Below, piece after piece: positions 19,769 to 59,208 of a DNA stretch of 64,000 bases. The position numbers and the translations under genes were made by a program. The notes beneath the pieces are model-generated. The model made no database searches and was not told where the DNA came from. It saw nothing but the letters and a program-made list of their open reading frames with translations. The stretch is from an uncultured bacterium (GTDB lineage Bacteria; Krumholzibacteriota; Krumholzibacteriia; LZORAL124-64-63): NCBI GenBank assembly GCA_963732385.1, contig CAVSZB010000007.1:1440001-1504000 (forward strand). Reading direction: 5' to 3'. Within the stretch, counting starts at the first letter, position 1, and each line of letters opens with the position of its first letter.

Positions 19769-21226
19769 GTGTCGTCCCAGCCGAACGCCGCCGCCGAATC
19801 CGTGCTCGCCCGCACCGCCGCCCGCTGCCGCGAGCGGGGGGTCGTCATCCCCACGCTGGCCGAGATGCGCGATCCCGCGCGGATCCCCGCAAAGATCCGC
19901 CAGCGCCTCGGCAAAGTCCATCTTTGGGATGTCGATCCGGTCAACCTCTTCCGCATCACCTGGAAGAACGACCCAAAGACCGGCCTGTTCAACGACGGCA
20001 ACTGGCTGGAATTCCCGCCCGAGCTGACCGGCATCGACGCCCGCATCGTCGGCGTGGTCGGCAAGTGGTTCCCGACCGGGTCGCACAAGGTCGGCGCCGG
20101 TTTCGGCTGTCTGGCGCCACGGCTGGTGACGGGACAGTTCGACCCCACGACGCAGGTGGCGGTGTGGCCGAGCACCGGCAACTACTGCCGCGGCGGCGCC
20201 TTCGACTGCGCGCTGCTGGGCTGCCGTTCGCTCGCGATTCTGCCCGAGGAGATGAGCCGGGAGCGCTTCGAATGGCTCCGCTCGATCGGCGCGGAGATCA
20301 TCGCCACGCCCGGCTGCGAGTCGAACGTGAAGGAGATCTACGACGAGTGCTGGAACATCCGCAAGACGCGGCCCGAGTGCGTGATCTTCAATCAGTTCGA
20401 GGAGTTCGGCAACCCGATCTGGCACTACCACGTCACCGGCGCGATCGTCGACGAACTGTTCACGCGACTTGCCGGACCCCGCGACCGCCTGGCCGGCTTC
20501 ACCTCCGCCACCGGCTCCGCCGGCACGATCGGCGCCGCCGACTTCCTGCGCACCCGCCATCCATCGCTGCGGGTGGCGGCCGTGGAGGCGCTGCAGTGCC
20601 CCACGCTCCTGCAGAACGGCTTCGGCGCGCATCGCATCGAGGGGATCGGCGACAAGCACGTGCCCTGGATCCACAACGTGCGCAACACCGATTTCGTGGC
20701 CGCCATCGACGACGCGCAGTGCCTCGACATCATGCGCCTGTTCAACGAGCCGGAGGGGCAGACCGAGCTGGAACGTGCCGGTGTCCCGCTCGCGCTCGTG
20801 GAGCAGCTGCCGCTGCTGGGCATCTCCGGCATCTGCAATCTGGTCGCGGCGATCAAGCTGGCGCGGTACTACGAAATGGACCGTCAGGACTTCATCTTCG
20901 TGCCGCTGACCGACTCGATGGAGCTTTACCAGTCGCGGCTGCAGGAGCATCGCCAGGAGCGCGGCCGCTACGACCGCGAACAGGCCGTGGCCGCCCACCA
21001 GCGCTGGCTCCTGGGCGCCCTCCCCGACCATGTGCGAGAGCTCGGCTACCGGGACCGCAAGGCGCTGCATAACCTGAAGTACTTCACATGGGTCGAGCAG
21101 CAGGGCCGCACGGTGGAGGACCTGCGCCGCCTCTGGGATCCCGACTTCTGGGTCGAGACCTACGCCGTGGCCGACGAGTGGGACCGCCGGATCGACGCCT
21201 TCAACGCGCGGGTGGCGGCGGGCTGA
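19769..21226 (+). CDS. PLP-dependent enzyme, fold-type II (cysteine synthase/threonine synthase/DAP ammonia-lyase superfamily)
   Basis: FPTGSHK (Schiff-base Lys), PSTGNY, ATGSAGT, IEGIG. GTG start after GAGGAG. Confidence 0.85.
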   Translation: MSSQPNAAAESVLARTAARCRERGVVIPTLAEMRDPARIPAKIRQRLGKVHLWDVDPVNLFRITWKNDPKTGLFNDGNWLEFPPELTGIDARIVGVVGKWFPTGSHKVGAGFGCLAPRLVTGQFDPTTQVAVWPSTGNYCRGGAFDCALLGCRSLAILPEEMSRERFEWLRSIGAEIIATPGCESNVKEIYDECWNIRKTRPECVIFNQFEEFGNPIWHYHVTGAIVDELFTRLAGPRDRLAGFTSATGSAGTIGAADFLRTRHPSLRVAAVEALQCPTLLQNGFGAHRIEGIGDKHVPWIHNVRNTDFVAAIDDAQCLDIMRLFNEPEGQTELERAGVPLALVEQLPLLGISGICNLVAAIKLARYYEMDRQDFIFVPLTDSMELYQSRLQEHRQERGRYDREQAVAAHQRWLLGALPDHVRELGYRDRKALHNLKYFTWVEQQGRTVEDLRRLWDPDFWVETYAVADEWDRRIDAFNARVAAG

Positions 21227-49992: not shown

Positions 49993-50030
49993 GGGCGCCC
50001 GGGGGCTCGGCCTCCGGGCGCCCCCGTTTT
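49993..50030 (+). terminator. Intrinsic terminator
   Basis: GGGCGCCCGG.../...CCGGGCGCCC stem followed by CCGTTTT. Confidence 0.7.
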
Positions 50031-50097
50031 CGTGCGCAGGGGAACTGTTCCCCGCGCGTTGGGTTAGAATCATCTTCCCCCCCATGGAAGGAGCACC

Positions 50098-50934
50098 ATG
50101 CTAATCCGCGCTACATCGCGGGCCGCGGACCCACGCGCCGTTTGTATCGTTATGGTAGCAACCCTGCTGATCGGCGGCGTGGCCTGCGCCCAGCCCCCCC
50201 GCCCCGCGCCCCCACCCGTGGTCCGGATCAGCCCCCCCCCGCCCCCGGACCCCGGCGCCACCGACTCTCTCTCCCAACCCGACTTCTCCGGAGTCTGGGT
50301 CCTGAACGCGAAGGAGAGCGATGACCCCCGGCCGATCTTCGAGACTTTGATGCCGACCAAGAAGCCTGACGCCGGCAAGGGGCGGAGACCGGGCGCTCGC
50401 CCCGGCGTCGGCGTCCGCGGCAGCAGCAGCGGCGGCCCCGGCATGGGCGGTGGCGGCATGGGTGGTGGCGGCATGGGCGGCGGCGCCGGCCTCGGCGACG
50501 ATCTGAGCGACGGCGACGAGGGAAACACCCGCGAGCGCCCAAACGCCGAAGCCAGGTTCGGCGGCGACGGCCCCGACCCGGCCGCCGCGAGGGCGCGCCA
50601 GGCTTTCGCCACCCGGATGGTCGCCGCATGGCAGCGGCTCCTCATCGCGCAGTCGGGCCCGGAGGTCGAAATCATTGACGGGAGCGAACAGCGGCTCATC
50701 CACGTCCTGGACGGCCAGCGACGCGATCGTCGTTCCACCCGCGCCAACCTGCTCGAAACCGCGCGCTGGGAAGGCGAAACGATGGTGATCACTCTGGAGC
50801 AGGAAGGCCGTCCCGGCATGACCCAGGTCTACCGGCTCGTGCCGGAAGAGAAGCGGCTATACGTGACGCTGCGCATCCCGACGCGCGGCCCGGGCGGCGA
50901 GAAGGTGATCAGGCTGGTTTACGAGTCGGCGTGA
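50098..50934 (+). CDS. Secreted hypothetical protein with Pro-rich and Gly-Met low-complexity segments
   Basis: RBS AAGGAG; signal-like N-terminus; PDFSGVW.LN..ESDD; (GMGGG)3. Confidence 0.7.
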   Translation: MLIRATSRAADPRAVCIVMVATLLIGGVACAQPPRPAPPPVVRISPPPPPDPGATDSLSQPDFSGVWVLNAKESDDPRPIFETLMPTKKPDAGKGRRPGARPGVGVRGSSSGGPGMGGGGMGGGGMGGGAGLGDDLSDGDEGNTRERPNAEARFGGDGPDPAAARARQAFATRMVAAWQRLLIAQSGPEVEIIDGSEQRLIHVLDGQRRDRRSTRANLLETARWEGETMVITLEQEGRPGMTQVYRLVPEEKRLYVTLRIPTRGPGGEKVIRLVYESA

Positions 50935-51003
50935 GGGTATGAGGAGGAGGAGGCAGAAGACGCGCGGGACCGGACGCCAGCGGTCAATCTGGATCGATCC
51001 GTT

Positions 51004-51243
51004 TCATTTCTTTACGTGCCCGCGAGTCACCCGGAAGAACGCCAGAATGGTCATTCCCATCGCCACGAGGAACGGCCAATGCCTGGCGAACACAAAGGCT
51101 TCCCTGCCCCAGTTGCCGGTCAGTCTCAGGATCAGCAACATCGCGCCCACGAAAACGACGATCGTGACCCACCCCTCCCATGAGATGGGCAGCCACGAGT
51201 TGTAGCTCAACCTTCGGAACCAGTATTTCATCTCTTTTTCCAC
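51004..51243 (-). CDS. Small two-TM membrane protein
   Basis: YWF....Y..W.PISWEGW followed by two hydrophobic helices; start may instead be ATG 51231. Confidence 0.6.
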   Translation of the reverse strand: MEKEMKYWFRRLSYNSWLPISWEGWVTIVVFVGAMLLILRLTGNWGREAFVFARHWPFLVAMGMTILAFFRVTRGHVKK

Positions 51244-51258
51244 AAGGCCTTCCCGATC

Positions 51259-51836
51259 CTAGAAGCGCAGGGTCGCGCAGAGCCTGCTCTCGCCGCCCGG
51301 GCCATGGTCGAGACCGAGTTGGATCCGGTCGGACGGGATCGACTGCCACTTCGTCCCCGGCGCAACCAGCGCGCCGACGAGCGCTCCCACGGGGACCAGC
51401 GCCACGGTCAGGATGATGACTGCAGCCCGGTCAGAGAAGAACTGCCATTCATCCGTGTCATCGCTGAAGTCGTCATCGAAAGCCAGCGAGATCAGAAGAC
51501 CGGTCGCCAGCACCGCGCCGCCACCGATCAGCGCTCCCGGTTGCGGCGACCCTGCTGAACATTCAACTCCAGGCCGGAAACGTTCTGCAGCGGCAGCACC
51601 ACCGGAGGCCGGTGGGCCGAAGTTTCCAGCGTGATGTCCGTCGCGGTGAGGTCGAGGAACTTCCCGGTGATCGATTTCGAGATGGTCAGGCCGTTGAATT
51701 CCGGCTCGCCGAGCGTGACGCGGACGCGCGCCCCCCGCTGCAGGATCGGCGCCTCTTGAGCTGACGCTCCCACGGTAGCGAACGTGAGCGCCAGAGACAC
51801 CGTGAGGATCGTCAGGAACGCACCGCCCCTGGGCAT
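51259..51836 (-). pseudogene. Secreted/membrane hypothetical protein interrupted by a 1-bp frameshift at 51536-51538
   Basis: RBS and signal peptide frame stop at RNRER*. One extra G joins it to GALIGGGAVLATG...VGALVGALV..G.KW in the next frame. Confidence 0.7.
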
Positions 51837-51898
51837 GTCGTACTCCCCTCGGCCTGACGACGCCGCGGGCCGCGGTGGCGATCCCTTCGCCCCGGATC

Positions 51899-52204
51899 CT
51901 ACGGGCAACCGTCCACGACATGCAAGCGCGTCATCTGCTGGAGTTGCACGAGCGCCTCTTCCTTCGTGGCCCCCTTGCCCTCCTCATAGACGTCGCCGCG
52001 CCTGGCCTGGGCGATCCAGGTGAGACCCCAGGTCACGGCCCAGCCTTCGTCGCGCATCGACTGCAGCGCCTGGTGGTAGCTGCCGCCGCATTCGCGGGCG
52101 AGGGTGACAATGGTCTGGAACGTGGTGCGCAGGACTTCGAGGTCCTCGGCAGTGGCAGGCATGCCGGCGGGCAGGCGGACCTGGATGGTGTTGTCGTCGG
52201 GCAT
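51899..52204 (-). CDS. Hypothetical protein (101 aa)
   Basis: RBS GGAGG; normal globular composition; C-terminal G.TKEEAL. Confidence 0.7.
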   Translation of the reverse strand: MPDDNTIQVRLPAGMPATAEDLEVLRTTFQTIVTLARECGGSYHQALQSMRDEGWAVTWGLTWIAQARRGDVYEEGKGATKEEALVQLQQMTRLHVVDGCP

Positions 52205-52250
52205 CGGGGAGAGCCTCCGCGCTGGGGGTTGCGGGGGGACCGGGCGGGGG

Positions 52251-52284
52251 CGGGCCGCCGCGCGATCGGGCGCGCGGCGGCCCG
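52251..52284. terminator. 14-bp GC hairpin after kbl (possible terminator or stabiliser)
   Basis: CGGGCCGCCGCGCG/CGCGCGGCGGCCCG; no U-tract on the downstream (minus-strand) side. Confidence 0.5.
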
Positions 52285-52300
52285 GAAAACGGCCCGGGGC

Positions 52301-53548
52301 TTACATGCCGTACTTCTCGATGATCTCCTTCTTGCCCAGACCGAGAATGCCGTACTTGGCGCCGACCTTCTTGAAGGCGGCGAGGCCCTTGTCGAGGTGG
52401 CTCTGGTCGTGCGCGGCCGAGAGCTGGGTGCGGATGCGGGCCTGAGCCTTCGCCACGACCGGGAAGAAGAAGCCGACCACGTAGATGCCCTCCTGGAACA
52501 TGTCGCGGGCCACGTCCTGGGCGAGCTTGGCGTTGTAGAGCATCACGGGGACGATCGGGCTGTCGCCGGCCTTGATATCGAGGCCGATCTCCTGCAGGCC
52601 CTTGCGCCAGTACGCGGTGTTCCATTCGAGCTTGTCGCGGCGCGCGGTGCTGGCGGAGATCAGGTCCAGGACCTTCAACGCGCCCGACACGATGACCGGC
52701 GCCACCGTGTTCGAGAACAGGTAGGGACGCGCGCGCTGACGGCACATCTCGACCAGCTCCGCGCGGCCGCTCACGCACCCGCCCGAGGCGCCGCCGAGCG
52801 CCTTGCCGAGCGTCGTTGTGATAATATCGATCTTCCCGTAGACACCGCAGTGCTCGTGCGTGCCGCGGCCGGTCTTGCCGATGAAGCCCGAGGAGTGCGA
52901 GTCGTCCACGAACACCATGGCGTCGTACTTCTCGGCCAAAGAGACGATCTCGTCGAGCTTCGCGATGTCGCCGTCCATGGAGAAGACGCCGTCGGTGATG
53001 ATCAGGCGGAAGCGCTTGTCCTGGTGCTCCTGCAGCTTCTCTTCGAGGTGCGCCATGTCGGAATGCTTGTAGGTGTCCTGCATCGCCTTGCACAGGCGCA
53101 TGCCGTCCACGATGGAGGCGTGCACGAGGCGGTCGGCGATCATGATATCCTGCTCCGACAACAGAGCCTCGAAGACGCCGGCGTTGGCGTCCATGCAGGA
53201 GGGGAACAGGAGCGTGTCCTCGGTGCCGAGGAACTTCGTCAGGCTGTTCTCGAGCTGGCGATGGATGTCCTGCGTGCCGCAGATGAAGCGGACCGACGAC
53301 ATGCCGTAGCCGCGGTCATCGAGGCCGCGGCGCGCCGCCTCCACCACGTCGGGGTGGCTGGAAAGGCCGAGGTAGTTGTTGGCGCAGAGGTTGATGACCC
53401 TGCGCCCCGGCGCGCCGGCCGGGAATTCGACCTCGATGTCCGCGCCCTGCGGACTGCAGATGTAGCGCTCCTCCTTGAACAGGCCCGCGTCGCGCAGACC
53501 GGCCAGTTCCTTGCGGTACCACTCTCGTGCCTTGGCGGCGTATGCCAT
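52301..53548 (-). CDS. kbl: Glycine C-acetyltransferase-like alpha-oxoamine synthase (2-amino-3-ketobutyrate ligase)
   Basis: CANNYLGL, SVRFICGT, DGVFSMDG, TLGKALGGASGG, RPYLFSN, ARIRTQ.SAAH. RBS AGGAGG. Confidence 0.9.
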   Translation of the reverse strand: MAYAAKAREWYRKELAGLRDAGLFKEERYICSPQGADIEVEFPAGAPGRRVINLCANNYLGLSSHPDVVEAARRGLDDRGYGMSSVRFICGTQDIHRQLENSLTKFLGTEDTLLFPSCMDANAGVFEALLSEQDIMIADRLVHASIVDGMRLCKAMQDTYKHSDMAHLEEKLQEHQDKRFRLIITDGVFSMDGDIAKLDEIVSLAEKYDAMVFVDDSHSSGFIGKTGRGTHEHCGVYGKIDIITTTLGKALGGASGGCVSGRAELVEMCRQRARPYLFSNTVAPVIVSGALKVLDLISASTARRDKLEWNTAYWRKGLQEIGLDIKAGDSPIVPVMLYNAKLAQDVARDMFQEGIYVVGFFFPVVAKAQARIRTQLSAAHDQSHLDKGLAAFKKVGAKYGILGLGKKEIIEKYGM

Positions 53549-53558
53549 GACGCGCCTC

Positions 53559-53807
53559 CTACTTCTTGAAGCGCTCAACGAGCGCGGCGATGCTGTTGAT
53601 GGTGTCGAAAGCCTCGGGGCTGGCGTCGGCGTCGGGGATCTGGATGCCGAACTTCTTCTCGAGGAAACGCTTCAGCGACACCATCGAGAACGAATCCACG
53701 ATGCCGCCCGAGATCAGGGCCGTGTCGTACCCGACCACACGGTCGTCGCCGTCCTCGAGGTACTCGCGGATCACATAGTCGAGGACCGTCTTCTTCAGAT
53801 CATCCAT
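53559..53807 (-). CDS. Acyl carrier protein
   Basis: 82 aa, acidic; LISGGIVDSFSMV phosphopantetheine Ser motif; F.I.IPD.D..PE.FDT. Confidence 0.92.
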   Translation of the reverse strand: MDDLKKTVLDYVIREYLEDGDDRVVGYDTALISGGIVDSFSMVSLKRFLEKKFGIQIPDADASPEAFDTINSIAALVERFKK

Positions 53808-53821
53808 CGTTCACTCCCGGG

Positions 53822-55522
53822 TTAGTCGTCCATCAGCGTCGAAACGTCGCCGACCGGCTCGCCGAATTCCTGCGCCCGCAGGATGCGACGCACGATCTTG
53901 CCGCTGCGCGTCTTGGGCAGCGCCTGCACGAACTCGATCTCCTGCGGCATGGCCAGGGGCGACAGCCGCTTGCGGATGAAGTTCATGATCTCCAGTTCGA
54001 GGTCGTCGTTCGGCTCGTGGCCCGGCTTGAGGGTCACGAACGCCTTGACGACTTCCATGTTGACCGGATCGGGCTTGGCCACCGCGGCCGACTCGGCCAC
54101 GGCCGGGTGCTCGATCAACGCCGACTCGATCTCGAACGGCCCGACCAGATGTCCGCCGGTGTTGATCACGTCGTCGTCGCGCCCGACGAACCAGAAGTAG
54201 CCGTCCTGGTCGATGCTGGCGCGATCGCCGCAGATGTACCAGCCGTTGCGGAACTTCGACTGGTAGCCCGCCTCGTTGCGCCAGTAGCCGCGGATCTGCG
54301 ACGGCCAGCCCGGCTTGAGCGCGATCAGCCCCACGCGTCCTGGCTCCGGGTACGGCTCGTGCGTGGCCGGATTGAGCACGGTGGCGGTTATGCCGGGGAA
54401 CGGCCGTCCCATCGAGCCCGGCTTGACCTTCATGCCCGGGAAATTGGTGATCACCATGCAACCGGTCTCGGTCTGCCAGTAGGTGTCGTGGAACGGCTGG
54501 CCGAACGCCTCCTGGCCCCACACCACGGCCTCGGCGTTGAGCGGTTCGCCAACGCTGGCGAGATGGCGCAGCGAAGAGAGATCGAATTTGCGGGCGGTCG
54601 GCGTGCCTTCGCGCATAAGCAGACGAATGGCGGTCGGGGCGGAGTACCAGACCGTGATGCGATGTTTCTGGATGAAGGCATACCACTTGTCGGTGTTGAA
54701 GCCGGCATCGAGCACACACTGCGTGACGCCGTTGGCCCACGGCCCGATAATGCCGTACGAAGTGCCGGTAACCCAGCCGGGATCGGCGTTGCACCAGTAG
54801 ATGTCGTCCGGACGCAGGTCGAGCACCCACTTCGCCGTGAGGTACTGCGAGATCAGCGAGTAGTGGACGTGCTGCGCCCCCTTCGGCTGGCCCGTGGTGC
54901 CGGAGGTGTAATGCAGCACCGACGGCGTTTCCGCCCGCGACGGGAAGGCGTCGAACTTCTCCACGCGCGGCAGCTGCGCCAGATCCAGCGCGGTCTCCCG
55001 CGCCTTCAGCGGCGCGTCGCCCTGGTCCACCACGATCACATGGCGCAGACCCGGCAGACGGTCGAGAATCTTGCGCACCTTGGGCGCGTGCTTCCTCTGC
55101 GTGATGATGGCCGCGGTCTGGGCGTTGTCGAGGCGCGTCAGCAGCGATTCGTCGCCGAAGGCGGAGAACAGCGGCTGCACGATGCCGCCCATTTTCAGGA
55201 CGGCCAGGAACCCGAGGTACAGCTCCGGTACGCGATCCATGAACAGGCAGACCCGCTCGCCCGGCTGGAGCCCGAGCCCCTGCAGGTGGACCGCCAGGGT
55301 GTTCGTGAGCAGGCGCAGGTCGTCGAACGTGTAGGTGCGCGATTCGCCCCGGTGATCCTCCCAGATCAGCGCCTGCTTCGCGCCGAGGCCGAGCTCACAG
55401 ATACGGTCGCTGCAGTGCCAGCCGATGTTGAGAGGCTCGCCCTTGCGATACCCCAGCTCCTTTTCGGCCTGTGACCAGTCGAAATCCCGCAGACGTTCCT
55501 CGTAGCTCGGGCTGTTGCTCAT
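53822..55522 (-). CDS. acsA: Acetate--CoA/ACP ligase (AMP-forming, short AcsA type)
   Basis: HYTSGTTGQPKG, ADPGWVTG, SVGEPLN, DTYWQTETG, GR.DDVI, LPKTRSGKI.RR. Confidence 0.9.
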   Translation of the reverse strand: MSNSPSYEERLRDFDWSQAEKELGYRKGEPLNIGWHCSDRICELGLGAKQALIWEDHRGESRTYTFDDLRLLTNTLAVHLQGLGLQPGERVCLFMDRVPELYLGFLAVLKMGGIVQPLFSAFGDESLLTRLDNAQTAAIITQRKHAPKVRKILDRLPGLRHVIVVDQGDAPLKARETALDLAQLPRVEKFDAFPSRAETPSVLHYTSGTTGQPKGAQHVHYSLISQYLTAKWVLDLRPDDIYWCNADPGWVTGTSYGIIGPWANGVTQCVLDAGFNTDKWYAFIQKHRITVWYSAPTAIRLLMREGTPTARKFDLSSLRHLASVGEPLNAEAVVWGQEAFGQPFHDTYWQTETGCMVITNFPGMKVKPGSMGRPFPGITATVLNPATHEPYPEPGRVGLIALKPGWPSQIRGYWRNEAGYQSKFRNGWYICGDRASIDQDGYFWFVGRDDDVINTGGHLVGPFEIESALIEHPAVAESAAVAKPDPVNMEVVKAFVTLKPGHEPNDDLELEIMNFIRKRLSPLAMPQEIEFVQALPKTRSGKIVRRILRAQEFGEPVGDVSTLMDD

Positions 55523-55551
55523 CCGATTCGACTCCCGGGTTCGGGTTGACG

Positions 55552-55926
55552 TTAGTCTTCGAGCACCACGCTGGCGGTGGCAAGTTCATGCGTATGGGAC
55601 AGGGTCACGTGCGCGCGCCGCACGCCACGCGCCGCCGCCAGCTCACCGAGGCGGCCGACCAGGACGAGGCGCGGTACCCCCGCGTCGCTCGCCACCTCGA
55701 CGTCGCGCCACGCCGCGCCAAAGTCCGCGGCCACGGCCAGCGCCTTGAAGACCGCCTCCTTGGCCGCGAAGCGGGCGGCGAAGTGCTGGGCAGGAAAGTG
55801 CTTGCGGTCGCAGTAGGCGATCTCGGCGGGGGTAAAGACCGTGTCGCGGAACCCCGCACCGTCGGCGGCGAGTTGCCGCGCGACCCGGGCGACCTCGATC
55901 AGATCGATGCCAATGCCGAGAATCAT
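55552..55926 (-). CDS. acpS: Holo-ACP synthase (phosphopantetheinyl transferase)
   Basis: MILGIGIDL.EV.R, FT..E..YC, AARFAAKEA..KAL, TLSH. Confidence 0.93.
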   Translation of the reverse strand: MILGIGIDLIEVARVARQLAADGAGFRDTVFTPAEIAYCDRKHFPAQHFAARFAAKEAVFKALAVAADFGAAWRDVEVASDAGVPRLVLVGRLGELAAARGVRRAHVTLSHTHELATASVVLED

Positions 55927-55998
55927 GCGCCCGTGGCGCCACCTTGCCTGGAGCGGGAAAGCCGCGCGTCGCGGACTCCCGACCCGCGACACGACGCA

Positions 55999-56027
55999 AA
56001 CATGAGGCCCGGCCGGCACGATGGCAA
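55999..56027 (-). promoter_or_regulatory. Putative sigma70 promoter of the acpS-acsA-acp-kbl operon (TTGCCA-17-CATGTT)
   Basis: Near-consensus -35 with a 17-nt spacer, about 70 nt upstream of acpS. Confidence 0.4.
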
Positions 56028-56203
56028 GGCCGCGCCGTCGATCCCGGCAGGCCTATCCGGACCTCGTCTGTCCAAATCGAGATCGCGGCGAACCAGACCG
56101 GCTTCGCGGCGCAACTTCAAGGACGGATCTGGCCGCGGGTCGCGGAGCCGGCTAGAATGACGGCGCGCCGCGTGCGCGGCGGAGCCCACGGAAGGAGAGC
56201 GCG

Positions 56204-56974
56204 ATGCTGAAGGGACAGACGGCCCTGGTGACCGGGGCCAGTTCGGGAATCGGCCGGGCCTGCGCCGAGGCGTTTGCCCACGCGGGGTGCCGGCTCATCC
56301 TCGCCGCGAGGCGGCGTGATCGCCTGGACAAGTTCGCGGCGGCCCTGCGCACCGCGCACGGCGTGGCAACGCTCACGCTGGAGCTGGACGTGCGCGACCG
56401 CGCCGCCGTTGACGCGGCGTTGCGCCACCTGCCGGCCGACTGGGCGGAGGTCGATCTGCTCGTCAACAACGCGGGGCTCTCGCGCGGACTCGACAAGCTG
56501 CCCGCCGCCGATCCCGTGGATTACGAGGAAATGATCGACACCAACGTAAAGGGACTGCTCTGGGTGAGCCAGGCGATCCTGCCCGGCATGGTGACGCGCG
56601 ACCGCGGGCACGTAGTGAACATCGGGTCGATCGCGGGGCACCAGGTCTACGCGGGGGGCAGCGTCTATTGCGCCACCAAGCACGCGGTGGCGGCAATCAC
56701 GCAGGGGCTCCGCCTCGATCTGCTCGGCACGCTGGTGCGGGTGTCGACGGTCGATCCGGGCATGGTCGAAACCGAATTCAGCCTCGTGCGCTTCCACGGC
56801 GACGCTCCGCGCGCGAACCAGGTCTATACCCAGTTTCCCCCGCTGAGCGCGGAGGATGTGGCCGAGGCAGTGTTGTGGTGCGTGACCCGCCCGTGGCACG
56901 TCAACGTGGCGGAGATCATCCTGATGCCGACCGACCAGGCCGCGGTCTACGGGAGCCATCCGCGCGGGCGCTGA
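56204..56974 (+). CDS. ydfG: NADP-dependent SDR, YdfG/serine-allo-threonine dehydrogenase-like
   Basis: TGASSGIG, ARR, LDVRD, LVNNAGL.RG, MIDTN.KGL, Y.GG.VYCATK, PGMVETEFS.VRF.GD; symbol tentative. Confidence 0.8.
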   Translation: MLKGQTALVTGASSGIGRACAEAFAHAGCRLILAARRRDRLDKFAAALRTAHGVATLTLELDVRDRAAVDAALRHLPADWAEVDLLVNNAGLSRGLDKLPAADPVDYEEMIDTNVKGLLWVSQAILPGMVTRDRGHVVNIGSIAGHQVYAGGSVYCATKHAVAAITQGLRLDLLGTLVRVSTVDPGMVETEFSLVRFHGDAPRANQVYTQFPPLSAEDVAEAVLWCVTRPWHVNVAEIILMPTDQAAVYGSHPRGR

Positions 56975-56991
56975 GCCCCGCGCGGCGCCGG

Positions 56992-59208
56992 TCACCAGGC
57001 CGATTCGACCGCCAGCACCGTGAACCGCCGCCGCTCCGGAGGATCGCCGAACACGACTGTCTCGCCGGGGCGCCGCCCCATGAACGCCAGCGCCAGCGGC
57101 GCATTGTAGTTGAGCACCTGGTTCTCGGGATCGGCGTCCCAGGGCCCCAGGAAGATGAAAGTGGTGTCGTCCGTCTGACCCTCCTCCCGCGCCCGCACGC
57201 GCGTGCCGATGTTCACGAACGGGCTGGTCGGCAGATCGGCGGGAATCAGGCGGGCGGTGGCCAGCTCTTTTTCGATGTGGGTCGCACGGCTCGTGATCAG
57301 ATCGCGCTTCTCGAGCGCCGCCTTGTACTCCGCGTTCTCGCTCAGGTCGCCATGCGCCGCGGCCTCGCCGATCTGCCTGGCCACCTCGGGCAGGTCCACC
57401 TTGATGAGATCGTCGAATTCCTGGCGCCGGCGCTCCAGTCCGGCCGGGGTCGTGTAGATGACGTCTTCATCCCAGGGCCGTTCGGTTTCGGCAAACACCT
57501 CGGGGTGCGTCGCGCGGACGTAGCTGAGCAGCTCCTGGCGGCCGGGGGCGGTCAGCCCGCCGTTTTCCGTGATCAGGATCTTCATCCGGCGCGCGGCATC
57601 GGGATCAAGTCCGGTCATCAATTCGCGCGCCGGCAGCCCGCTGGCGCCCGAGAGCGCCTGTTGCGCCTGTGCCAGCACCCTGTGGTGGCGCTCGTCATCC
57701 GAGACGCCGCACAGGCGTCCGGTGGCGTCGGCGAGCTGCAGCAGGGCCAGGAACACGTCCAACTCCGGCAACAGCGCCATGGAGGCCAGCATCGGCGACA
57801 GTCGTGACGCCCGCCGCGCCCGCCACAGCCACACCAGCATGTCGGGGGCGGTGGTCGGACGGTCGACGACCTCGCGCAGGGCTGCCTCCAGCGCCGCGAC
57901 ATGGCCACCGTCGGCAAGCTCACGCACCATCATCTCGCCGAGCCGACGGCCGGCACGCGGCAGGATCTTGGCCCACACCGGGGCCCAGCGGTCCGGCAGC
58001 GACGCGCGCAGGAAGTCGAGCGTCACGCGCAGCAGACGTTCGTCGAGCCGGCGCGCAAGCTGCGCCAGATCCTCTATGCGTCCGAGCACCTGCGCCACGG
58101 CGTTGGGGCCGGGGCGCGGCACGGCGGCGCCGCGCGCGGCGATCTCGGCGTGGACCGCCAGACAGGCGAGCGCCAGCGGCGGATCGGCCGGCAGAAGTAC
58201 CATCGCCTGACGCGCCACAGCCTGGCCGAACCAGGCGAGCAGGTCGGGGTCGGACGGATGCTCGGTCGTGGCTTCGTCGAGATAGCCGAGCGTCAGACGC
58301 AGACGCTCCTCCGGCGTGGTCAGAGCAGTGAATTCGTCGCGCAGGCGATCCGCGCGCGTGCGGTCGGCAGCCAGGAGCCGGTAGACCGGCTGCGTGCCTC
58401 CCGTAGCCTCGATCCGCGCGTCGCGCCTGATGGCCGCCCGCGCCCCGGTCCACCACGCCGCCCAGCCCTTCTCGCCCAGCAACGTGATCACCTGCACCTT
58501 CAGATCGCGATAGCCAAGGGCGCCGTCCTTGCTCGCCTCGACGGCACGGCGGACGAATACGGCCGGTTCGGCCAGCGCGATCTCGCTCAGTAATTCGGGG
58601 CTGTAGAGCAGCAGCGCGCGGAAGTGATCCGCAGGCAGCGCAATCACGCCCGGCACCTCTTCCCGCGTGAGCGCCTGCCGGTGCTTGCCGAAACGGACCG
58701 TGATCCCCCCTCCGGCATCGAGCGTCTCCACCACGCCCGGCTCGTAGTGGCGCGACTCCTTGACGAACGCGCCCGGACGCAGACGTGTGTAGGCATCGGC
58801 CAGGTTGACGGCGTCGGCCAACGATCCGTCACCCTTGAACACCGAGCGCAGCAGGGCGGCGAGTGGCGCGTCATCGCCATGCGCCGCGGCATAGTAGCGC
58901 GGCAGCTCGCGGCGCAGCAGCCGCGATTCCGGCAGCTCCGCCGCCGCCTGGCGCGCAGCGGCCAGCGCCGTGGCCTCTCCGGCGCGCTCCGTGAGTGACG
59001 CCAGCAGCACCTCGAGCAGCGCGTCCGCCCGCTCCGCCTCACCCAGCCTGCCCACCTGTCCGACGATCGGGACCAGTTCGGCGGCCCCGATCCCCCCCTC
59101 GGCCAGCGCCTCCATCCAGGCCGTGTCCAGTTCTTCGAACTTCTGCGCGTTGGCAAGCCGGTGCAGTTTGGCCAGGCTGGGACCTTGGTGGTCTGTCGTT
59201 TCCGACAT
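56992..59208 (-). CDS. greA: GreA/GreB elongation factor with about 580-aa N-terminal extension
   Basis: C-terminal I.EA..HGDLSENAEY.AA, GPWDAD, N...PLA.A; RBS GAGGAG. Confidence 0.88.
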   Translation of the reverse strand: MSETTDHQGPSLAKLHRLANAQKFEELDTAWMEALAEGGIGAAELVPIVGQVGRLGEAERADALLEVLLASLTERAGEATALAAARQAAAELPESRLLRRELPRYYAAAHGDDAPLAALLRSVFKGDGSLADAVNLADAYTRLRPGAFVKESRHYEPGVVETLDAGGGITVRFGKHRQALTREEVPGVIALPADHFRALLLYSPELLSEIALAEPAVFVRRAVEASKDGALGYRDLKVQVITLLGEKGWAAWWTGARAAIRRDARIEATGGTQPVYRLLAADRTRADRLRDEFTALTTPEERLRLTLGYLDEATTEHPSDPDLLAWFGQAVARQAMVLLPADPPLALACLAVHAEIAARGAAVPRPGPNAVAQVLGRIEDLAQLARRLDERLLRVTLDFLRASLPDRWAPVWAKILPRAGRRLGEMMVRELADGGHVAALEAALREVVDRPTTAPDMLVWLWRARRASRLSPMLASMALLPELDVFLALLQLADATGRLCGVSDDERHHRVLAQAQQALSGASGLPARELMTGLDPDAARRMKILITENGGLTAPGRQELLSYVRATHPEVFAETERPWDEDVIYTTPAGLERRRQEFDDLIKVDLPEVARQIGEAAAHGDLSENAEYKAALEKRDLITSRATHIEKELATARLIPADLPTSPFVNIGTRVRAREEGQTDDTTFIFLGPWDADPENQVLNYNAPLALAFMGRRPGETVVFGDPPERRRFTVLAVESAW

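Follow-up and report, generated by a model that had tools for sequence, protein, structure and literature searches.

A widespread four-gene cassette linking an AcsA-like ligase, a stand-alone carrier protein and a variant Kbl, with predicted carrier-bound acetyl chemistry

What reaction is served by genes for a carrier-priming transferase, an acetate-activating ligase, a stand-alone carrier protein and a relative of Kbl that are packed side by side in one bacterium? The question is raised by a 64,000-nucleotide stretch of DNA (positions 1,440,001 to 1,504,000 of contig CAVSZB010000007.1, here C7; the whole stretch is called the window) from an uncultured Krumholzibacteriota bacterium with a genome of 3.8 Mb that is 96% complete. 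A first-pass annotation, made from the letters alone, had read the genes as a system in which acetate is loaded onto a private acyl carrier protein (ACP) and condensed with glycine. The cassette, as we found, is real, widespread and uncharacterised. It probably carries out carrier-bound acyl chemistry through acetyl-ACP. In the leading reading, to which we assign a probability of about 0.45, ATP would drive the condensation of acetate and glycine on the private carrier, and threonine dehydrogenase (Tdh) would receive the resulting 2-amino-3-ketobutyrate. The four genes are as follows.

55552..55926, minus strand: AcpS-type phosphopantetheinyl transferase (PPTase), 124 amino acids (aa); TIGR00516, 77.8 bits (cut-off 59.8), and PF01648
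53822..55522, minus strand: AMP-forming ligase resembling Bacillus AcsA, 566 aa; NF003313 (acetate-CoA ligase), 746 bits (cut-off 729)
53559..53807, minus strand: stand-alone carrier protein, 82 aa; PF00550, 22.9 bits (cut-off 20.8), with Ser39 in DSF
52301..53548, minus strand: variant Kbl, hereafter Kbl*, 415 aa; TIGR01822 (glycine C-acetyltransferase), 584 bits (cut-off 493)

These open reading frames (ORFs) follow one another in the order acpS, ligase, carrier and Kbl* with gaps of 29, 14 and 10 nt, and their coordinates and family scores confirm the co-oriented layout described in the first-pass annotation, whose quoted motifs (DTYWQTETG, LVHAS, SCMDAN and DSHSSG) were all found in the translations. 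It had also reported neither fab genes nor tdh in the cluster; according to the gene calls neither adjoins it in the window, but Tdh is linked to the cassette in other copies. The GC content of the cassette is 0.65-0.67 compared with about 0.70 in the flanks. In this host the cassette genes are extra copies: the genome also encodes a canonical, coenzyme A (CoA)-using type of Kbl (with LNHAS; 52-53% identical to Kbl*), which lies at C7:884405 with fba and fusA as neighbours, as well as a long-type Acs (39-41% identity) and, with the cassette AcpS included, three PPTases in total.

The arrangement was followed through two sets of loci. A GTDB scan with the carrier alignment gave at least 597 matching stretches, at least 567 of which were confirmed, and 80 loci from 15 named phyla (44 loci from Acidobacteriota and eight unassigned) were kept for neighbourhood counts, whereas a second set of 80 metagenome loci was found with Kbl* patterns. 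The counts leave out loci too short on the relevant side, and a few loci represent the same genome reached twice. In the GTDB loci, Kbl* lay downstream of the carrier in 78/78 and the ligase upstream of the carrier in 73/78, acpS preceded the ligase in 62/70, and all four genes were present in 61/70. In the metagenome loci, the carrier preceded Kbl* in 64/64, and the ligase and acpS lay upstream in 51/55 and 22/34, respectively. Because Kbl* follows the carrier in every GTDB locus counted and the carrier precedes Kbl* in every metagenome locus counted, the arrangement is more than chance, and the four-gene synteny holds over at least the 15 named phyla of the GTDB loci. Throughout the fetched loci, the carrier preceded 147/147 Kbl* with room upstream, compared with 0/28 Kbl of the LNHAS type.

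Since both locus sets had been picked through one member of the cassette, genome draws were added, in which the co-occurrence counts are descriptions rather than statistics, kin not being independent. Among 41 relatives, the clade carrier was found in 18, Kbl* in exactly those 18, and the clade ligase in 16 of them. An even draw of 151 genomes from another phylum contained Kbl* (at least 72% identity) in 13, with the carrier directly beside it in the same 13, and neither carrier nor Kbl* was found in the remaining 138 genomes at the thresholds used; two of the 13 (the centre genome and one other) had been known beforehand, leaving 11/149 as new. The clade ligase was present in 12 of these 13 genomes, adjacent in nine and elsewhere in the genome in three, and three GTDB genomes with a ligase-less locus also hold a clade ligase elsewhere (71-73% identity). 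A plasmid collection yielded no variant, every match being below 60%.

The evidence on the acyl donor comes mainly from Kbl*. In a quick tree made without bootstrap from 56 variant Kbl (thinned from 155) and 35 other oxoamine synthases, a limited outgroup sample, the Kbl* sequences formed one side of a branch with a support (SH-aLRT) of 100, indicating that the carrier-linked Kbl separate as their own clade. The sister of this clade is a 64%-identical Kbl that adjoins a Tdh of the short-chain dehydrogenase/reductase (SDR) type, has no carrier neighbour and shares the N-terminal insertion and the C-terminal tail of Kbl*, but retains LNHAS and the other canonical residues; the residue changes thus track the carrier and not the tail. 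The structure model of Kbl*, which has a 13-residue C-terminal tail, best matched a solved Kbl with a template modelling (TM) score of 0.92. H143, S190, D215, H218, K249 and R373, which we take to be the catalytic His, Ser, Asp and His, the pyridoxal phosphate (PLP) lysine and the catalytic Arg, respectively, are invariant in 62 homologues and identical in the outgroup alignment, and the glycine pocket stretch SSVRFICG is the same as in solved Kbl.

When 155 variant rows were compared with 25 canonical rows, the sharpest differences clustered at positions 135-159. Arg140 occurs in 100% of variants and 12% of canonical rows; position 142 is Val or Ile in 100% of variants and Asn in 100% of canonical rows, changing DxLNHAS to DRL[VI]HAS; position 157 is Gln or Thr in 80% of variants and Arg in 25/25 canonical rows, an Arg that 4/4 proteobacterial or actinobacterial Kbl also keep; and position 158 is Asp in 98% of variants. 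Further pocket-side differences involve F115, P116, M119, C269 and A273. Through Sinorhizobium HemA aligned to PDB 2bwn, His143 and Gln157 of Kbl* correspond to His142 and Lys156 of Rhodobacter ALAS. According to the accessible part of PMC4615937, Lys156 lines the adenosyl pocket in which succinyl-CoA is bound, with strand 134-138 and helix 143-150 flanking it, and the K221V change at the equivalent position of mouse ALAS2 raises the Km 23-fold. The same segments are those changed in Kbl*, in which the canonical CoA-nucleotide pocket (DxLNHAS and a basic residue at His+14) is not found. Kbl* thus keeps its catalytic residues and appears to have a rebuilt CoA-nucleotide pocket; these changes, though resting on few reference enzymes, offer the strongest sequence-based support for a carrier as donor. 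LVHAS and SCMDAN, which the first-pass annotation had taken as features of a specialised clade, proved to be marks of the clade, and the changes map to this pocket. Its third motif, DSHSSG, is particular to the present copy, most homologues reading DSHASG or ESHASG, and was rejected as a clade mark; the genomic predictions on synteny, clades, LVHAS/SCMDAN and the ligase Trp described below stood.

A change of donor has precedents within the alpha-oxoamine synthase family. As far as the accessible texts of PMC12704756 and PMC9304779 go, E. coli BioF prefers pimeloyl-ACP and B. subtilis BioF uses CoA only, whereas Alistipes SulA uses acyl-ACP, so donor use switches between CoA and ACP within the family. 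With ADRLSHAS and Leu at His+14, E. coli BioF shares the DRLxHAS pattern and the missing basic residue with Kbl*; a bioC-linked Acinetobacter BioF reads ADKLVHAS. In contrast, ThAOS has SDELNHAS with Arg and ALAS a DxLNHAS-type motif with Lys. Unlike the cassette, BioF and SulA work with long acyl chains and the housekeeping AcpP and lack a dedicated set of ligase and carrier genes; their identity to Kbl* is about 30%. Another comparison is with the Kbl/Tdh threonine-glycine pathway (TIGR01822; PDB 1fc4, 7bxp, 3tqx and 7v58): Kbl* shares the fold (TM 0.91-0.92), 52-54% identity, the PLP lysine, the catalytic His/Asp/Arg, SSVRFICG and, in some copies, the linkage to Tdh, but is unlike canonical Kbl in its separate clade, the carrier that always adjoins it and the acidic Asp158, and a canonical Kbl coexists with it in many genomes.

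At four loci (L194:8184-11400 of genome G003, L072:6675-13034, L239:4738-7633 and L086:6430-12822), a canonical Kbl was observed in one run with the carrier and Kbl*; L086 has two ligase copies, and G003 has no clade ligase. Two Kbl types side by side would shuttle acetyl groups from CoA to the carrier or back. At L040:6637-7863, L056:6425-7669 and L112:5701-6927, the cassette adjoins another, distantly related alpha-oxoamine synthase, which is 34-36% identical to Kbl* and falls under all NCBIfam cut-offs where scanned.

The ligase shows a parallel separation. With 33 clade ligases (thinned from 117) set against 38 AcsA-like and long Acs rows, again a limited outgroup sample, the clade ligases formed one side of a branch (SH-aLRT 100), and the carrier-linked AcsA is thus likewise a clade of its own. 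The nearest solved sequence is 9g79, and the short architecture, adenylation motifs, catalytic Lys and Trp pocket are shared with B. subtilis-type AcsA (NF003313; PDB 9g79; accessible part of PMC11255334). In the accessible text of PMC10455477, a Trp in the acyl pocket restricts the chain length, medium-chain ligases having Gly in its place; the chain-limiting Trp414/416 described there is equivalent to Trp349 of the cassette ligase. Because this Trp, which the first-pass annotation had regarded as closing the pocket (DTYWQTETG), is retained in 117/117 clade ligases, the cassette ligase likely takes C2-C3 acids. The adenylation motifs are present, and the catalytic Lys542 occurs in 116/117 clade ligases; K549 of B. 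subtilis is needed for adenylation, as stated in the portion of PMC11255334 available. The sole exception, in which Lys is replaced by Arg, is an orphan ligase on a long branch (L196:8898-10595) in genome G007, which is 94% complete and has a clade ligase, but in which neither carrier nor Kbl* was found. Though a single case, this orphan may represent a natural control with a decayed catalytic Lys. Furthermore, the clade has an invariant C-terminal patch of N488, M489, I512, M513, N514 and M525 (PVNMEVV and IMNF[IV]RK[RK]LSPLAMP), and Bacillus-type relatives (52-53% identity) have neither the patch nor a carrier neighbour; we infer that the patch docks the carrier.

In the carrier, Ser39 lies within DSFSMVSL, the columns of which are invariant over 62 homologues. 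Among solved sequences, the carrier comes closest to type II peptidyl and D-alanyl carriers, and against the fatty-acid AcpP model TIGR00517 it scored 20.2 bits (cut-off 70.45). No fab gene recurs beside it across the fetched loci, and a separate, stronger stand-alone PF00550 match exists in the host at C7:284234. By these sequence criteria, the carrier is judged not to be the fatty-acid AcpP, and the cassette AcpS likely primes it.

The co-encoding of an adenylating ligase, a specialised carrier and an alpha-oxoamine synthase is known from the AasR/AcpR/serine palmitoyltransferase (SPT) system of Caulobacter crescentus, E. coli B and Sphingomonas wittichii; in the accessible part of PMC9386255, AasR bears the annotation of an acyl-CoA synthetase but loads its own carrier only, and SPT prefers the acyl-carrier donor. 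That system differs in joining long-chain fatty acids with serine for sphingolipids (PMC9386255, same part), whereas the cassette has an AcsA-type ligase with the small-pocket Trp, a carrier like type II peptidyl carriers, and its own AcpS. Against three SPT models, Kbl* scored 317, 272 and 229 bits, below the respective cut-offs of 640, 500 and 670, and is thus not an SPT; long-chain fatty-acid use by the ligase is not expected, as judged from Trp349 in 117/117. With a synthase below the SPT cut-offs and a small-pocket ligase, the cassette is not considered a member of the sphingolipid system; it would represent the same ligase-carrier-synthase design put to use in the core metabolism of acetate and amino acids. 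MadH offers a precedent for an acetate:ACP ligase, although a literature search yielded no paper on it.

Considering these results, we propose the following scenario, in which gene order, co-occurrence, the separate clades, the retained catalytic residues and the changes where the acyl donor enters are observed and every chemical step is inferred from them. AcpS likely primes the private carrier, to which the AcsA-like ligase likely attaches acetate at the expense of ATP. The predicted role of Kbl* is to join this acetyl group, still on the carrier, to glycine; the 2-amino-3-ketobutyrate so formed may then pass to a Tdh encoded elsewhere and be converted to threonine. The private carrier likely separates this acetyl group from the acetyl-CoA pool, and ATP could drive the condensation at the same time as the cell's canonical, CoA-using Kbl works in its usual degradative direction. 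AMP-forming ligases usually run forward, and the condensation is unfavourable with CoA, for which a private carrier is a way to drive acetate and glycine forward; both points fit the forward direction.

A link to threonine is suggested by two non-homologous Tdh types placed beside the cassette. Tdh lies directly upstream and co-oriented in 4/80 loci with a gene upstream of acpS, being of the Zn type in L072, L110 and L144 and of the SDR type in L134, and is convergent in L038 and L039. Tdh-like genes, all scoring under the curated cut-off, were found in 16/18 module-bearing compared with 10/23 other relatives. The Tdh-like gene of the host also scores under its curated cut-off; within the class, canonical kbl directly adjoins its counterpart in three other genomes and lies within about 3.5 kb of it in two more. 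The total of 6/160 loci with Tdh adjacency is nevertheless small, and together with the C2-C3 range permitted by the ligase Trp pocket (PMC10455477, accessible part), the differences at F115, P116, M119, C269 and A273 in Kbl*, and the two unrelated small proteins that follow Kbl* in different lineages (see below), it leaves room for a carrier-dependent product that is not destined for Tdh: aminoacetone by decarboxylation, or an aminoketone metabolite or signal made from propionyl groups or another small amino acid. Such a product appears unlikely, as the catalytic and glycine-side residues of Kbl* equal those of Kbl, two non-homologous types of Tdh have been recruited beside the cassette, and no tailoring, export or resistance gene recurs there.

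The points that weigh against an ATP-driven condensation on the carrier concern both the donor and the direction. Regarding the donor, the equivalent of Salmonella Arg584, which binds the CoA 3'-phosphate (accessible part of PMC10455477), is present in 117/117 clade ligases. The GGHL change, in which the equivalent of Arg526 is Leu, is common to carrier-less AcsA relatives and for that reason was not accepted as evidence that CoA use has been lost. The whole short AcsA family lacks the Arg191 loop, and clade-specific changes flank the CoA site, which shows no clear loss-of-CoA signature. In Kbl*, Arg157 is retained in 8% of variants, and a Sphingobacterium SPT also has no basic residue at this site, which is thus not diagnostic across the family. 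The clade ligase was not found in the module-bearing relatives G003 and G030 (a pair with completeness values of 100% and 97%) or in G105 of the phylum draw, which has carrier and Kbl*. The retained Arg584 equivalent, the persistence of carrier and Kbl* in G003 and G030, and the fact that ligase and Kbl* both exceed the curated cut-offs of CoA-using families would suit ordinary CoA-using Acs and Kbl paralogues that share an operon, with the carrier as a regulatory or structural subunit or in the service of an unrelated partner. However, the dedicated AcpS, the invariant DSFS, the strict carrier-Kbl* linkage, the rebuilt pocket and the orphan-ligase decay would each need a separate explanation, and the host already has a long-type Acs and a canonical Kbl, making this arrangement quite improbable.

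Regarding the direction, every Tdh-like match in the relatives is under the curated cut-off, and the host ThrC is over its cut-off, so the route is not needed for making threonine. The host shows a membrane pyrophosphatase, and no soluble one of family I or II was found in it. Four genomes that are at least 92% complete (G012, G021, G023 and G030) have Kbl* as the only Kbl found and a Tdh-like gene, and ThrC is over the cut-off in three of them; a degradative role suits these genomes because Kbl* is their only Kbl found beside the Tdh-like gene. These findings, and locus L072, which unites tdh-acpS-ligase-carrier-kbl*-kbl in one run, are consistent with the same carrier-bound chemistry running backwards for energy, in which threonine would give glycine and acetyl-carrier and the ligase in reverse would make ATP and acetate from AMP and pyrophosphate. 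A precedent is the AMP-forming Acs1 of Syntrophus aciditrophicus, which forms ATP in this way in a host with membrane pyrophosphatases only (accessible parts of PMC4992975 and PMC13404658). That enzyme differs in being a long-type Acs with acetyl-CoA as substrate, the term 'carrier protein' being absent from the accessible text of the mBio paper, and its bias residues sit in a loop absent from the short AcsA family. Moreover, a family I soluble pyrophosphatase occurs in 7/18 module-bearing relatives, the same count as the 7/23 without the module, and a soluble pyrophosphatase lies within about 4 kb of the cassette in four loci; as it shows no association with the module, it was rejected as a direction marker. 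ThrC, over the cut-off in 4/18 module-bearing and 10/23 other relatives, was also rejected for this purpose, as it shows no clean exclusion. The forward habit of AMP-forming ligases also stands against reversal, which we consider possible, on the doubtful side, and the forward condensation remains our preferred reading.

Regardless of direction, the cassette probably encodes a CoA-independent core amino-acid route, in which, across hundreds of uncultured species, acetate, glycine, ATP and threonine would be connected through an acetyl group bound to protein, as either ATP-driven threonine formation from acetate and glycine or ATP-yielding threonine fermentation, Kbl* having converged on the carrier-docking signature of ACP-using BioF. 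No paper on the gene set or on acetyl-ACP with 2-amino-3-ketobutyrate was found in a search outside which most subscription journals lie; only papers on SPT, on SulA and on unrelated subjects were returned. The cassette genes sit in databases under ordinary acsA and kbl annotations. If the proposal is true, acetyl-ACP would serve the metabolism of acetate and amino acids as a dedicated intermediate, apart from the synthesis of lipids and natural products, those acsA and kbl calls would be wrong, and the metabolism reconstructed for many uncultured bacteria of sediment, peat and digesters would change. Kbl and Kbl* of one genome (52% identical) form a clean natural pair for the choice between CoA and carrier in alpha-oxoamine synthases, with residues 140, 142, 157 and 158 as candidates for donor choice, and the cassette, with four small soluble proteins, is directly testable in E. 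coli.

Two small genes follow Kbl* in different lineages. The first is an optional fifth gene of the cassette.

51899..52204, minus strand: protein of 101 aa without a family, co-oriented, 96 nt downstream of Kbl*

It lies directly downstream of Kbl* in 55/138 loci with a downstream gene call and nowhere else in the fetched loci. The protein has invariant W55, E74 and a terminal Pro, often ends in GCP or HCP (GxP), and consists of a helix pair and a beta-beta-alpha unit. It had no Pfam or NCBIfam match at E 0.001, none significant at E 1, and no Atlas match, and no clear fold was found, the best Z of 4.9 over 40 residues reflecting a common beta-beta-alpha arrangement. An unrelated 60-aa Cys/His protein takes the same place in 32/138 loci, the named ones belonging to Acidobacteriota (e.g., L069:11772-11954); in its pattern MLCEELE...DHQxxGHxGxPCFEE, the conserved Cys, His, His and Cys could bind metal. 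No other neighbour recurs beyond lineage synteny, and a larger biosynthetic cluster was thus rejected.

Around the cassette, Rfam gave no match in window positions 50000-58000, and thus no riboswitch or RNA element, and promoter and terminator scans were near chance level. Contigs from four sediment RNA runs of two studies (share of words 0.03-0.14) cover the cassette genes, and some bridge acpS-ligase, ligase-carrier or kbl-orf101; no weight was given to them as evidence of expression, because flanking genes are also covered and DNA carry-over is possible. A YdfG-like SDR gene is divergent from acpS (window 56204-56974, plus strand; NF007829, 251 bits, below the cut-off of 411). YdfG can act on allo-threonine. 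The gene was rejected as a cassette member, as a close copy occurs only in one same-genus locus and other SDRs are unrelated in place or type.

Elsewhere, an acylating aldehyde dehydrogenase lies near the cassette in L139, L162, L177, L179, L180 and L195, in some with a CoA-transferase-like gene, and three of these loci have no adjacent ligase. L147:2466-4712 encodes a MetX-homoserine dehydrogenase fusion within the cassette, between Kbl* and ligase. At window positions 19769-21226 (plus strand), a 485-aa ORF resembles, by eye, a PLP-dependent threonine synthase and has no NCBIfam match at E 1e-40. The same genome also has what appears, from translations only, to be a second carrier cassette (L230:2981-6832, corresponding to about 325000-328800 of G000:C8), containing an asparagine-synthetase-like gene, a type II carrier and a stand-alone adenylation enzyme.

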